Shown here: one piece after another, positions 1 to 59,201 of the stretch
Layout: each line of letters starts with the position of its first letter
Numbering within the stretch: position 1 is the stretch's first letter
Assembly (NCBI GenBank): GCA_964016885.1
Contig: OZ024745.1
Coordinates: 85,870,001 to 85,934,000 of the forward strand
Direction of reading: 5' to 3'
Length of the DNA: 64,000 nucleotides
Source of the DNA: Eledone cirrhosa
Lineage: Eukaryota
The notes under the pieces: generated by a model
What the model saw: the letters and a program-made list of their open reading frames with translations, nothing else
What the model was told of the DNA's origin: nothing
The model's database searches: none
Translations under genes and position numbers: made by a program

Positions 1-1650
1 GGTGATAGAGAGAGAGACAGATTTTATAACTGAGAAAAATATATTGTTTTACAGAGAGAGGTTAAAAAACCGTTGGAAGATAATATATAAATTAAAAGAA
101 TTTGAAAATTAACGAAGAGAAAAATTTAAGAATAATGTTAAATTAAGGGTTTAATAATATGTGCGATGAAAAGAAATTGTTAATATGTATTAAGAATAAT
201 ATTAAGTTAAGGTTTGAATAATGATGGGTTTAATAATATGTGCGATGGAATGTTTTCTCTCTGCCTGCATAAATTCCACAGAACATTCCATAAAGTATAC
301 AGCTAATATCTAATACTTTACAAATTTAAAATCCTTTTTCTCAAAGGCACATATATATATATACATATATTTCTTTAAAAATATACCCATCTTCTACCTT
401 ATTTCAATGTTATTTATTATACATTATATAATACTAGTTACCCATTCTATATCATTCCTATTTATCACTTCCCTTTCTTCCTTTTTTTCCTTTTTTCTTT
501 TAATTTTTAACCTCTAATCTGTACCCTTTCTTCCTAGATACTTCTCAATTCTCATTATTACTCACCACAATATATCCACTCTTCCTTCTTCCATCCTATC
601 ACTGGCCATAAAACTTACTATTACCCTTTTAAATACTTTATAGTATCACCTTGAAAAATCCTTCGCAAACATAAACATTTTTTGTTACGTTAGATTATTC
701 ATCCTCAATTCATTAGTTTTTTCTCCCTTTCAGGCTATCTAACTTCTACATATTACACATCACAACACATAAAAACAAACTTAAACCCTAACTAATCTCC
801 TTTATTACATTATATTATTACCATTAGGAAATACTTCATAAACATACATATTTTGATGTTAAGGTCTTCTTAAACACTATCTCCTTCTTTGCTTTCTGCG
901 CTCATTTGTAAACAAACTATTTACATATATTACACATACATATTACTTTACATAAAAACATACTTAAACAATAACTAATTCCTCTAAATTCATAATTCAT
1001 CCACTCTTCTACTTCTGTTCACAATATATCCTTAATAACATTACTATTTTTATTTTAATAATACATATCAACAATTTCTTCCCATCGCACATATTATTAA
1101 ACACTTCAATATTCAAACCTTAACTTAATAATATTCTTAATACATATTAACAATTTCTTTTCATCGCACATATTATTAAACCCTTCAATATACAAACCTT
1201 AATTTAACATTATTCTTAATTGTTTCTCTGCGTTAATTTTCAATTTCTTTTAATTTATATATTATCTTCCAACAATTTTTTAACCTCTCTCTGTAAAAAA
1301 AATATATTTTTATAAGTTATAAAAGCTATCTCTCTCTCTATCACCCATCTCTCCTCCTATCTCATCCTTCCTTATTATACTCCTCCCCCCTCCATTCTTT
1401 ACACTCATCTCCTCCTTTTTTCATCCTTTCCACCCCACCCCCTCATCTTTTTCCCAATATCACACATCAATCTTAAACTACTTTTCATATGTTGACTTAA
1501 AACTGCACTATTCACAAGTGTTGTTTAACCTTCATATCATGTCTCCCTATTTTATATGACGAAAACGCAAATGTCATCATATGATGATATTTGTTTTTGA
1601 AATGCGCATAATAAAATACATGGAACTATTTTAACCATCTTTTGATCTTA
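1..1650. mobile_element. PLE family A fold-back insertion (left arm runs off the window); + arm carries the endonuclease C-terminus and 3' UTR
   Basis: 1-250 is the reverse complement of ~1080-1345. 253-306 encodes FSLCLHKFHRTFHKVYS*, matching the end of the PLE ORF at 14929. The UTR matches 13945-14930 and 16230-16910. Confidence 0.8.
1548..1618 (+). ncRNA. Hammerhead ribozyme motif, family A, degenerate core (ATGACGA)
   Basis: tattttat-ATGACGA-long stem II-GAAA-tgcgca-TA-ataaaata; homologous to the intact copy at 13977-14047. Confidence 0.55.
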
Positions 1651-1959
1651 TATATTATATATATATATATATTGTATATATATATTATATATTATATATA
1701 TATATATATATATATATATATATATTTATATATATATATATATATATATATATATATATATATATATATATATATATATATATATATATATATATATATA
1801 TATATATATATATATATGTATATATATATATATATATATATACATATATATACAGAGCCCTGGTTTTCTGTTGAGCTCTGCTGATGATTGAAATTCCAAC
1901 CGTGACCATCTCCACTGAAAGTTTTCATGAAATAGTCTTTTAAGACTATACAGAGCATT

Positions 1960-2210
1960 TGATGTTATTCCAAATTGAAGGATAAGTGTTTCAAACTTTA
2001 TTTTATCATGAGTTAAAGGTCTATAGATTTTCCCTGGATTTTACTAAATTCTGTGGATGAATTTATATCCTGATTCTCTTTTGAGATGAGTTTGAGTTAT
2101 TTTTCCTAAATCTTTCGTTAACTACTTTTCCCATCTTGACGTTATAGTCGCATATATGTTATAGAATGCCGTTAGCTTCTTGCTAAAACAATCTCTATAC
2201 CTCTCATTTA
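1960..2210. repeat. Unclassified interspersed repeat
   Basis: Homologous to 30075-30320 (gaaggat..aaactttattttatcatgagtt..) and partly to 61245-61295. Confidence 0.6.
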
Positions 2211-2373
2211 TATATATATATATATATATATATATATATATATATATATATATATATAAAATGCATGGAACTATTTTAACCATCATTTGATCTTATATAT
2301 ATATATATATATATATATATATAAAATGCATGGAACTATTTTAACCATCTTTTGATCTTATATATATATATAT

Positions 2374-2574
2374 AGGGCGGTGGATTGGCAGTATCAGTAG
2401 AGGGTCAGACGCCATGCTTTCCAGCATAGCTACGTGCCTTTACGATCTGAGTTCAAATCCCACCGAGGTTGCCTTTGTCTTTCATCCTTACGGGTTCGAT
2501 AAAATAATGTACCGGTAATGTACTGAGTAATGCACTGGGTAATTGGTGGCCTTGTGCCTAAAGTAGAAACAATT
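2374..2574 (+). mobile_element. tRNA-derived SINE (octopus-type)
   Basis: A-box-like tggcagtatcagt, B-box gagttcaaatcc, conserved tail ...gcctaaagtagaaacaatt; multiple copies in the window. Confidence 0.85.
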
Positions 2575-55335: not shown

Positions 55336-56819
55336 TATAATATATATATAGATATATAATATATATATTATATATATTAATATATATATATATTATATAT
55401 ATATTATATATATAATATATATATATAATATATATATATATACAATATATATATATAATATATATATATATAATATATATATATTATATATATGTATATA
55501 TATTATATACATATATATATTATATATATATATTATATATATATATATATTTTGTGTATATATATATTATATATATATTATATATATATAATATATATAT
55601 ATATAATATATATATATATATAATATATATATATAATATATATATATACATATAATATATATTATATATATATATATATAATATATATATATATATAATA
55701 TATATATATATATAATATTATATATATAATATATATATAAATATATTAATATATATATATAATATATATATTATAGATATATAATATATATATATATTAT
55801 ATATATATACATATTATATATATACATATATATATATATATATTATATATATATATATAATATATATATATATTATATATATATATTTTATATATATTAT
55901 ATATATATATATTATATATATATTATATATATATATAATATATATATTATATATATATTATATAATATATATATATATATATATATATATATTTATATAT
56001 ATTGTATATATATATATATATATATATATATATATATATATATATATATATATATATATATATATATATTATATATATATTATATATATTATATATATAC
56101 ATATTATATATATATATTATATATATATATATATTATATATATATATTATATATATAAATATATTATATATATATATATATATATATTATATATATATAT
56201 AGATATATATATATATAATATATATATATATATATTTATAATATAATATATATATATATTATATATATATTATATATATATATTATATATATATATTATA
56301 CATATATATATATTATATATATTATATATATATATATTATATATATATTATATATATATATATATTTATATATATATATTATATAATTATATTATATATA
56401 AATAAATATTATATATATGTATTATATATTTATATTATACATATATATATATATTATATATTATATATATATTATATATATATATATTTTATATATATAT
56501 GTTATATATATATATGATATATATATATATTATATATATATATTATATATATATGTATATATATATATAATATTATATACATATATTATATATATATATA
56601 TTATATATATATATATTATATTATATATATATATATATATATATATATATATATATATATATATATATATATATATATATATATATATATATATATATAT
56701 ATTTATATATATATATATGTATATTATATATATATATATATATATATATTATATATATATATATATATATTATATATATATATTATATATATATATATAT
56801 ATATATATAAATATATTAT

Positions 56820-58197
56820 ATACGATATTAAACAAATGGAAACTATATTTATAAAACCATATTTATTTCGTTATATATATTTCAGGGATATCATATTAAA
56901 AATATGGTATGCCTTCCTCAGACAAAATACAATACATAATCTGTTTCATAAATAATTTTTGACATACCTTATAAATAATGCAACTTCCATTTAAAAAGTT
57001 GATTTGGTAGTGAAACTGTTATGACAGTTATATAGAAAGAAAAACGAAGATGAGAAGAAGAAGATGAAGAGATGCATGTAAATAAAAAAGAAGAAGGTGA
57101 AGAGATGTATGTAAAGAAAAACAACAGAGCGAGAGAGAGAGACAAGGAGATATGGGAGAGAGAAATACATTGAGGAAGTGAAAAAATATAGTAGGCAGCT
57201 TTTGGACAGATGATCAACGTATATGTGAGGGAAGGGATACAGTTAAACTAGCCGACACATAAATCACGTCCAGTGTATAGGAGAAAAAAGAAAGAAAGAT
57301 GATATATTTAAAATATATTACAAATATATTATGTCTCATCCATTTGAATTATCAATTTTTATGAATTAGGTATTATAATGTAAATATCAGTATTCATGAA
57401 TGAGACACATATCCATAATGTGTGAAAAAATGACCACATGCTTAGTTTAAAAATTCTTAGGTCTATAAGCAAAATCAGAGATAAAACTTCAAACATAAGT
57501 ATATATGCATTCTCATGAAAAAAGAAAAAGAGAAAAGAGAAGGTTATCTCAAATTCAAGTTGATAAATATAGACATACGTGTGAACCTACGTGATATGCT
57601 CCACAAATTCTTATATTTCATGAAAAACTTCATTGCGTTACAAAAGATTCCACCCTACATATATTTACATACATATATACATATATATAGACATAAAATA
57701 TATAAGATATACATTAACATTTAAAATAACATTCCAGCCTCACTTGCATGATTATCGATCAAGCATAGAGTAGACAACAGATATCAATATTAAAAATTAA
57801 AAACGCCAAGAATATCTTCGTCACTCCACAGAGTATCAAGGGACGCAAGAGAACATAGTATGCCACGCATATCGGTCACATAAAATCAGATAAAACTAAT
57901 AACATATACAGCCTAGATTATAATACTTATAGAAAGTTTATATATAATGAACTACATAAAAGCTACAATAAGACCACCTTGAAAAACTTAGAAGATATTA
58001 ATATAGAGGGATATAATATAGTGTCTAAACTAGGACTTCAGAGGCATACACAACCATCACCCCAAACCCCCCTAGATTCTCTCTGAAGGACCATAAGGAG
58101 GACTTCATCAGCAACCCCTCGATAAGACTTATCTGCTCTTCCAAGTCCGACATTGGTATTATCAGCAAGAAAATTTTAGATAAAAATCATCCCACAA
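56820..58197. mobile_element. Family B 3' end (-) joined to a PLE RT N-terminal fragment (+)
   Basis: HHR core CTGAGGA..GAAA on - at ~56870-56925; PRFSLKDHKEDFISNPSIRLI..SDIGIISKKILDK at ~58070-58185. Confidence 0.75.
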
Positions 58198-58884
58198 ATT
58201 ATATACATATATTATATATATATATATATATTATATATATATATATATATATATATATATATATATATATTATATATATATATATTATATATATATATAT
58301 ATTATATATATATATTATATATATATATATGTATATTATATATATATATATATATATATATATATATATATATATATATATATATATATATATATATAAG
58401 GTAATGGATTCTTTTACAATGGAATTAGCTCGAAAGAGGAAAATACCCACTGAGCGGTGTATAAACTGATATGTATGTGATGAAACACATTTGTATGTGA
58501 TCAAACAGGTTTGATTTTGAAATTTAAATGTGTCTAAACATCATAGCCTCTTGGCAATGCAGTTCGTCTTTGTTGATTTATTATTTTAAATCGATATGGA
58601 CAAACTGTAGTATAATAATTAGTATACTTCAATCTGGCTAAATTTTCTTTTGCAATATATATACAGATGTGTTGGTATCTGTGTTTCATCACATACATAT
58701 TAGTTTATATATATATATATATATATTATATACATATATTACATATATATATATATATATATTATATATATATATTATATATATATATATATATTATATA
58801 TATATATATGTTATATATATATATATATATATATTATATATATATATTATATATATATTTATTATATATATATATTATATATAA

Positions 58885-59201
58885 ATGAAGTAATTCCGTC
58901 GGAAAAGACCAGGAAAAAAGAGTGCTCTATGTAGGTAACAGAGCTTAATAGTTATGTAATAAACAACATAAGGCAATTATTCCATTTACCAGTGGTTTCT
59001 TAAAAGCAAAAGATTTTGCTTTCAATCCTCAGAATGAAAAAATCCTGATCTGTTTATTGAATTTGGATTTTAAAAAACCTTCTTTTTTAATCCAAATACA
59101 ATAAACAGACCAGGATTTTTTCATTCTGAGGATTGAAAGCAAAATCTTTTGCTTTTAAGAAACCACTGGTAAATGGAATAATTGCCTTATGTTGTTTATT
59201 A
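58885..59201. mobile_element. Small fold-back of family C 3' ends
   Basis: 58957-59075 is the inverse of 59085-59201. Confidence 0.8.
59122..59175 (+). ncRNA. Type I hammerhead ribozyme, family C
   Basis: catt-CTGAGGA-ttgaaagcaaaa/ttttgcttttaa-GAAA-ccactgg-TA-aatg; mirror copy at ~58983-59036 (-). Confidence 0.8.

Follow-up and report, generated by a model that had tools for sequence, protein, structure and literature searches.

Head-to-head Penelope-like element insertions in (TA)n arrays of Eledone cirrhosa carry one tail per pair

Ten paired islands in a (TA)n-rich window

A 64,000-nucleotide stretch of the 3.0-Gb Eledone cirrhosa genome (GenBank assembly GCA_964016885.1, contig OZ024745.1, positions 85,870,001 to 85,934,000 of the forward strand), here called the window, holds ten islands of 5′-truncated 3′ ends from Penelope-like elements (PLEs) or retrozymes, set in (TA)n and paired head to head so that their tails point outward. 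The islands total 20.6 kb. Self-alignment of the window recovers inverted arms of 88–99% identity in nine of them, bearing out the fold-backs described in an earlier reading of the sequence alone (the original prediction); the tenth, at 48931–52217, joins two different families head to head without a same-family inverted arm. In all ten islands one arm, and one only, is extended at its 3′ end by a stretch called the tail (the left arm of the cross-family island was judged by comparison with family G), and across the genome the same holds for 121 of 123 clean pairs (p about 1e-33 against 50%). The layout, the (TA)n bias and the one-sided tail are already published for PLEs; the regularity counted here was not found in print. 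Window features are listed below; pLTR denotes the pseudo-long terminal repeat.

1..1650: family B pair; left arm (−) running from 254 nt ahead of the window's first base to 250, tailed, with an internal deletion that removes its hammerhead region; right arm (+) 251–1650, tail-less
3964..4320: family F-type pLTR-only pair; left arm (−) with tail 3964–4042 and hammerhead 4149(−); right arm (+) tail-less, hammerhead 4217(+)
13946..17000: family B pair; long left arm (−) 13946–16234, tail-less, hammerhead 14039(−); right arm (+) 16235–17000, tail about 16915–17000
19194..23125: family A pair with matches to reverse transcriptase (RT-like) and GIY-YIG; left arm (−) 19194–21527, tail 19194–19245, internal deletion, hammerhead 19438(−, loose scan only); right arm (+) 21527–23125, tail-less, hammerhead 22934(+)
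25290..27153: family C pair, U3-A8 hammerhead core with short helix I; left arm (−) 25290–26162, 161-nt tail, internal deletion; right arm (+) 26162–27153, tail-less
27538..29884: family D retrozyme, 317-nt unit with U3-A8 hammerhead; tail-less array of 3.1 units on −, which terminates at the TA run of the unit itself; tailed array of 4.2 units on +, which extends 25 nt past that end point; junction insert of ~49 nt made of 18-nt repeats
33071..36050: young family E pair; left arm (−) 33071–33985, tail-less, hammerhead 33218(−); right arm (+) 33985–36050, GIY-YIG, tail 36019–36050, hammerhead 35869(+)
41780..42577: near-symmetric family G pair; left arm (−) with 155-nt tail 41780–41937; right arm (+) tail-less, hammerhead 42490(+); hairpin at the centre near 42255
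48931..52217: cross-family pair; G-related arm (−) 48931–51678 carrying GIY-YIG and hammerhead 49013(−), judged tail-less against family G; family F arm (+) 51675–52217, tailed; 4-nt junction overlap 51675–51678
58885..59205: family H pLTR-only pair; left arm (−) with 68-nt tail 58885–58952; right arm (+) tail-less; hammerheads 59032(−) and 59126(+)
1647..63285: degenerate (TA)n arrays, interspersed and flanking the islands, 17.8 kb in all

The single polarity claimed for these islands, left arm on − and right arm on +, is upheld by protein and ribozyme motifs alike. A type I hammerhead rule, relaxed after a first strict version had found 3 sites, gives 24 matches in the window against 0–1 in each of 20 shuffles; 17 of the 24 lie inside islands, all 17 in the outward polarity. 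Pfam matches to GIY-YIG fall in three islands, on − in the left and + in the right arm of 19190–23125, on + in the right arm of 33071–36050 and on − in the left arm of the cross-family island; an RVT_1 match is weak and confined to one island. Other details of the original prediction needed amendment. It put a hammerhead at both 3′ ends, where both arms pass the rule in only four of ten islands (3964–4320, 27538–29884, 33071–36050 and 58885–59205), the hammerheads of the remaining arms being decayed or failing it; the motif does not abut (TA)n, lying about 30–170 nt away. The proposed island ends omitted one-sided tails (for example 16915–17000 and 36019–36050), and the first island begins before the window rather than at position 1. 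Families described as unrelated are better called divergent: the eight 3′ ends share no DNA similarity, and their proteins are 22–41% identical over long alignments.

The families have the features of canonical endonuclease-bearing (EN+) PLEs: an RT followed by a C-terminal GIY-YIG in one open reading frame, a minimal type I hammerhead in the terminal repeat, an adjacent inverted 5′-truncated copy with a one-sided tail, and an AT-rich or microsatellite target. An RT YxDD motif and a GIY-YIG-type motif share single natural frames in families A, B, E and F; families C and G show the endonuclease motif only. Among genomic copies the hammerhead rule is passed by 24 of 29 in family A, 27 of 29 in B, 28 of 28 in E and 21 of 28 in G, and its helix requirement by 1 of 29 in C and 0 of 25 in F, whose commonest copies keep the core. 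Rfam reports no hammerhead at gathering score in the window; its HH9 model matched 7 retrozyme units below that score. Families A and E carry a CX3-4CxxC motif before GIY-YIG, in a clade comparison made by motif rather than by a tree of reference elements; a CX2-5CxxC motif at that place is described for Neptune, Nematis and Naiad in PMC8557442. Identity with Naiad/Chlamys PLEs was considered and rejected, the endonuclease being C-terminal rather than N-terminal and canonical hammerheads being present. Many family E 3′ ends are 99–100% identical, and two copies (L112 and L117) keep a 777-residue open frame with RT and GIY-YIG motifs; family E is therefore recent. A search for sequencing runs that contain one family A stretch listed none of RNA.

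One tail per pair, a shared source and uncoupled arm lengths

To extend the count beyond the window, the genome was queried with the 3′ end of one window copy per family, yielding 492–2042 candidates each (lower bounds), with 40 scored. The 30 loci returned per PLE family, less second arms and duplicates, gave 168 loci in six families, 105 of them extended to 8–10 kb, besides 38 retrozyme loci. These are top matches to the window copies and not a random sample; pairing had no role in their choice. Further family E and F loci were left out, making those two samples smaller, and family H was excluded from the counts because its first query spanned the fold-back centre and selected symmetric copies. 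We rejected the idea that family H is a fixed palindromic mini-element: a one-arm query returned close partners in a minority only, at differing spacings.

At least three TA units stood at or within 24 nt of the 3′ end in 162 of the 168 PLE anchor ends. A same-family inverted partner on the 5′ side was called at 103 loci, directly joined at 86 and separated by an unmapped stretch at 17; one call proved false, leaving 102 of 168, and a few more loci have adjacent inverted pieces with broken outer ends. Retrozymes lie head to head at 34 of 38 loci. The two tail-to-tail neighbours seen among retrozymes have 336 and 602 nt between them, TA included.

In every family the 3′ ends fall at two fixed positions, with 25 to 161 nt between them; the inner, tail-less one coincides with a short TA-like motif within the element. 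Automatic calls on the 103 PLE partners gave 94 tail/no-tail, 4 partial/no-tail, 4 tail/tail and 1 none/none. On inspection of the concordant calls, L228 was discordant, L054, L103 and L245 had unresolved outer ends and L212 was false; with one doubtful discordant call (L214) dropped, 94 discordant and no clean concordant PLE pairs remained. Retrozyme pairs, read by hand, comprised 27 discordant, 2 concordant and 6 unscorable. A full tail was present on 86 of the 168 anchor arms.

The two arms of a pair also resemble one another beyond their family. Across 77 pairs and 31,226 shared sites, subfamily alleles (present in at least three other loci) had 108 occurrences in both arms and 30 in a single arm, where 28.5 in both would be expected if the arms were independent; an earlier test with fewer sites agrees (54 both, 32 one arm, 13 expected). 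By locus, 18 of 30 informative loci favour sharing, 10 do not and 2 are tied. Retrozyme markers were common to both arms in 10 of 11 informative loci, and markers of the young retrozyme subfamilies each occur in only about 1 in 10 loci. Alleles private to a locus were common to both arms 62 times and unshared 407 times; wholesale conversion therefore does not explain the sharing. Shared alleles point to a common source copy or subfamily and cannot alone show one RNA molecule.

Arm lengths are uncoupled in most pairs. Of the 77 discordant pairs whose arms are joined directly, 28 have the longer 5′ extent in the tailed arm and 33 in the tail-less arm; in the other 16 the two arms agree to within 30 nt and count as symmetric. 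In ten pairs the tailed arm amounts to the tail alone, and eight of these break off no more than 20 nt from the inner site. Since either arm can be the longer, one cDNA copied back on itself cannot give both classes. A minority shows coupling: those 8 stops of tailed arms near the inner site compare with 11 over the next 200 nt (p 0.009), and in 7 pairs the 5′ ends are coupled, lying no more than 30 nt apart at a depth of over 350 nt, well away from the pLTR start, where within-family shuffles give 1.7 such pairs (p 0.0004). Retrozyme junction positions vary between loci. Of 31 such junctions, 11 were scored as inserts, often of local repeats (2 likely artefacts of single-nucleotide polymorphisms), and microhomology marks 15 of the 20 others against 47% by chance (p 0.01). 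Inserts of this kind may mark polymerase-theta end joining.

Some arm ends have features of their own. Many family A copies (window 22861–22875; L008, L012, L019, L021, L026) are truncated ~250–265 nt from the inner end, probably at the pLTR transcription start, and family E shows a similar cluster near 270–300 nt. Internal deletions in one arm are common (for example L001, L061, L073, L048, L065, L109 and L246). At L068, L225 and L139, small perfect palindromes, the centres of another family's pairs, abut truncated tails.

Proposed paired priming on one source RNA and its rivals

Inverted PLE insertions are well described. An inverted 5′ copy, a tail often at one end and a bias to microsatellites are reported in PMC8557442, which calls the mechanism undefined; head-to-head is the most frequent PLE form in PMC3846280, which proposes self-priming on antisense RNA and notes rotifer inverted PLEs with 8–10 bp target duplications; and the same layout occurs in Drosophila (PMC2377424). 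The elements studied here agree with these canonical EN+ PLEs in domain order, 5′ truncation and the adjacent inverted 5′-truncated copy, and likewise in the predominance of head-to-head pairs, the frequent tail at one end and AT-rich or microsatellite targets. They differ in tail length, 25–161 nt against the 30–40 bp described, and the one-tail rule, shared alleles and arm lengths counted here are qualitative or absent in the published accounts. The elements and layout themselves are thus known; the value of the counts lies in a near-absolute one-tail rule, a shared source and uncoupled lengths.

Biochemical work supplies a candidate mechanism. The Anolis Poseidon protein PAc cleaves and extends both target strands in vitro, starts at two sites bounding the tail and is a predicted dimer (PMC11167929). 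It shares with our elements an AT-rich target and a pLTR hammerhead, and with the scheme proposed below both-strand cutting and extension, two internal start sites bounding the tail and a dimer; it differs in that no homology at priming is reported there, whereas tail-less ends here coincide with a short TA-like motif. The main text of that paper draws no link from both-strand priming to inverted insertions, although its supplements may bear on start-site pairing, and it leaves open the mechanism of tandem or inverted PLE insertion. A second precedent is L1 twin priming, in which the second target strand primes on the same RNA and yields a 5′ inversion joined to the first cDNA (bioRxiv 10.1101/2024.12.14.628481). 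Second-strand priming on one RNA is common to it and the scheme favoured here, and tail-only arms fit it directly. The original L1 model reportedly has a variable second site and non-overlapping arms, whereas each family here has a constant second site and its arms mostly overlap over hundreds of bases: the 10 tail-only pairs among 77 have the non-overlapping L1 form and the rest overlap. The process works like twin priming but does not take the L1 form. A literature search, made partly from listings, turned up no study that tallies discordant tails or extends twin priming to PLEs, and PMC13282606 adds nothing on structure; older subscription reviews may discuss them.

We favour, at a probability of about 50%, paired target-primed reverse transcription from two fixed positions on a single source RNA, followed by end joining. 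The PLE protein would cut both strands of a (TA)n target, plausibly a palindromic TA site, and from each cut 3′ end cDNA synthesis would be primed on a common source RNA, at the inner, TA-like site for the tail-less arm and at the outer site for the tailed arm. Synthesis of the outer cDNA would then either halt at the start of the inner one, which leaves a tail-only arm as L1 twin priming would, or continue past it with strand displacement, which leaves overlapping arms; host end joining would finally unite the truncated cDNAs in head-to-head order. The double-strand cut in vivo, the dimer, the single RNA molecule, the displacement and the repair route are inferred parts of this scheme. The original prediction had likewise proposed that both strands of the target are cut and prime cDNAs that are then joined. 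This core fits best, given that either arm can be longer, that junctions are locus-specific and that both-strand priming occurs in vitro (PMC11167929); the independence of the two cDNAs did not survive, because one tail in 121 of 123 pairs and shared subfamily alleles show that they are not independent. The counts discriminate between the models: they speak against single-cDNA copy-back as the principal route and connect the two start sites used in vitro with the two ends of a single insertion, which makes an open mechanistic question testable. More tentatively, and at somewhat under even odds, programmed double priming may be the standard step of PLE integration, with the head-to-head, one-tail insertion as its normal product and retrozyme arrays arising by the same step. 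A dimer on one RNA would allot the two target strands to two fixed start sites, one apiece; its two reverse transcriptases would copy that RNA, the second displacing the first, and retrozyme arrays would be laid down from multimeric or circular RNA. If true, one mechanism would account for inverted pLTRs, the one-sided tail and dispersed retrozyme arrays.

Several observations weigh against paired priming on one RNA. No accepted same-family partner was found at 66 of the 168 PLE loci, and 18 single arms have TA directly at their 5′ side. More one-arm than both-arm alleles occur in 10 of the 30 informative loci (mostly 1–2 sites, one locus with 0 against 3), and symmetric pairs (L034, L045, L023) have more shared private alleles, which would fit later conversion or fold-back; alleles would also be shared if one master copy dominated at a time. 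The two strands did not differ in start site in vitro, and the accessible text of PMC11167929 does not report that sites are paired on a single target molecule. For one RNA to give overlapping arms, strand displacement is required; such activity of a PLE reverse transcriptase was not found in the literature searched, and the word 'displacement' is absent from the accessible text of PMC11167929. Cross-family pairs, finally, do exist. Among loci without a same-family partner we sought partners from a different hammerhead-bearing family, and about 206 loci gave four clear head-to-head cases with no TA between the arms (L002, L084, L139 and window 48931–52217), three further cases being ambiguous. 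The cross-family island of the original prediction is real and in the expected polarity, and of a rare type that could also be produced by deletion or template switching. Both elements joined at L139 are young, 14 nt of the partner's own right arm persist there and the microhomology is 8 nt long; template switching or deletion fits this locus as well as two RNAs. The arms of the window hybrid match their nearest copies at 98% and at 99–100%, a sequence difference that hints at different ages. Such hybrids are rare, ambiguous and weak evidence.

Among the alternatives, the closest to the original prediction has two separate RNAs primed in one asymmetric complex, the arms matching since one master is active at a time. 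It gives overlapping arms without strand displacement, permits the four cross-family pairs, including L139, and is compatible with uncoupled lengths and end-joining junctions; yet the single tail found in 121 of 123 pairs calls for a built-in asymmetry, and neither the coupled 5′ ends (7 against 1.7) nor the stops at the partner's start are predicted. The model also sits badly with retrozyme markers found in about 1 in 10 loci but in both arms at 10 of 11, and meets in the window hybrid two arms unequal in their match to nearest copies (98% against 99–100%). We consider it rather unlikely. Fold-back copying of a single cDNA, or self-priming on antisense RNA as modelled in PMC3846280, with the endonuclease trimming one arm at the internal TA motif, would account for shared alleles, the 16 of 77 symmetric pairs, central hairpins such as that at 42255, the TA-like sequence at every tail-less end and a retrozyme locus (L170) mirrored 530 bp into host DNA. 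A copy cannot outreach its template 5′, however, and the tail-less arm is the further-reaching one in 33 of the 77 pairs. In 10 pairs the tailed arm comprises the tail alone, and the purified protein primes on sense RNA from both nicked strands (PMC11167929). As a general route it is improbable, although it may lie behind the symmetric minority.

Pairs might instead form after insertion, through rearrangement, conversion or deletion between neighbours, or a ready-made palindromic unit might move. Internal one-arm deletions are indeed common, locus-private alleles spread over adjacent retrozyme units (in the window island and L128) and the cross-family pairs may be deletions; but junction positions vary between loci, the pattern is already present in near-identical young copies, most private changes are confined to one arm (407 against 62) and nothing in such a history supplies a source for the tail rule, which makes it very improbable. 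Least credible are fold-back chimeric reads or assembly errors. The region is highly repetitive, and among the contigs listed no piece bridges either tested window junction (21527 and 51675), a result that neither confirms nor refutes them, as the samples may lack the insertions; one reduced-representation run gave two opposite-strand joints elsewhere with 1–2 read starts, too weak to use. Against artefact, the ATTA/TAAT bias of the flanking TA arrays runs in the same direction on both sides in 7 of 8 islands tested and is not mirrored, and the arms of the window islands differ from their partners by 1–12% and by their own tails, deletions and substitutions; the islands are therefore not fold-back read chimeras. 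Outer ends also fall at two fixed positions per family, and the layout is published in other animals.

Retrozyme arrays and other features of the window

Family D is a non-coding tandem array of 317-nt units that each bear a type I hammerhead, 7 such motifs being present in the window island; by sequence these features suggest a non-LTR retrozyme. Minimal PLE hammerheads, with opposite-strand hammerhead pairs 100–700 bp apart, are described in PMC4209133; like these and non-LTR retrozymes, our elements have the type I minimal motif, an extra base before stem II, a palindromic stem III and the U3-A8 variant. Tandem units of a few hundred bases are likewise shared with non-LTR retrozymes (PMC7229834; bioRxiv 10.64898/2026.07.22.740005). 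By contrast, 34 of 38 loci here are head to head and follow the PLE tail rule; the accessible texts of the same two papers do not describe inverted arrays or tails of retrozymes. The retrozyme counts are insertion-level evidence that arrays are placed by PLE machinery and not grown only by local amplification.

Some retrozyme loci stand apart. At L170 (3413–6347; G000:C4 near 358.18 Mb) both arms are tailed and the palindrome runs ~530 bp into the host flank at 99.8% identity, either a true inverted target duplication or an assembly artefact. L162, alone, has a private allele in the left arm and in two inner right-arm units that is absent from the two outer units, as if the left arm had been primed on an upstream unit of a mixed multimer RNA. 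Adjacent units within one arm share locus-private alleles at window 28557–29567 and at L128, which suggests later tandem expansion or conversion.

Elsewhere in the window, kilobase TA arrays (2574–5518, 10647–13495, 52218–56822 and others) carry strand-biased interruptions with a ~13-nt period, the bias switching in places (47734–48350); repeated insertion may enlarge them. Further hammerhead-bearing ends of the same or other PLE families, outside the islands of the original prediction, lie at 24914–25136, 42613–47729 (with long frames on the − strand), 56828–58195, 59343–61151, 9013–10642 and 36409–36747. Two elements of long interspersed nuclear element type, at 5520–8807 and 37368–41704 on the + strand, sit within TA arrays without inverted arms; both match AP-endonuclease, the first also RT and the second zf-RVT. 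A repeated ~190-nt element, which resembles a tRNA-derived short interspersed nuclear element, ends in TA arrays at 2374–2571, 13498–13676, 32326–32561, 61700–61879 and other places.

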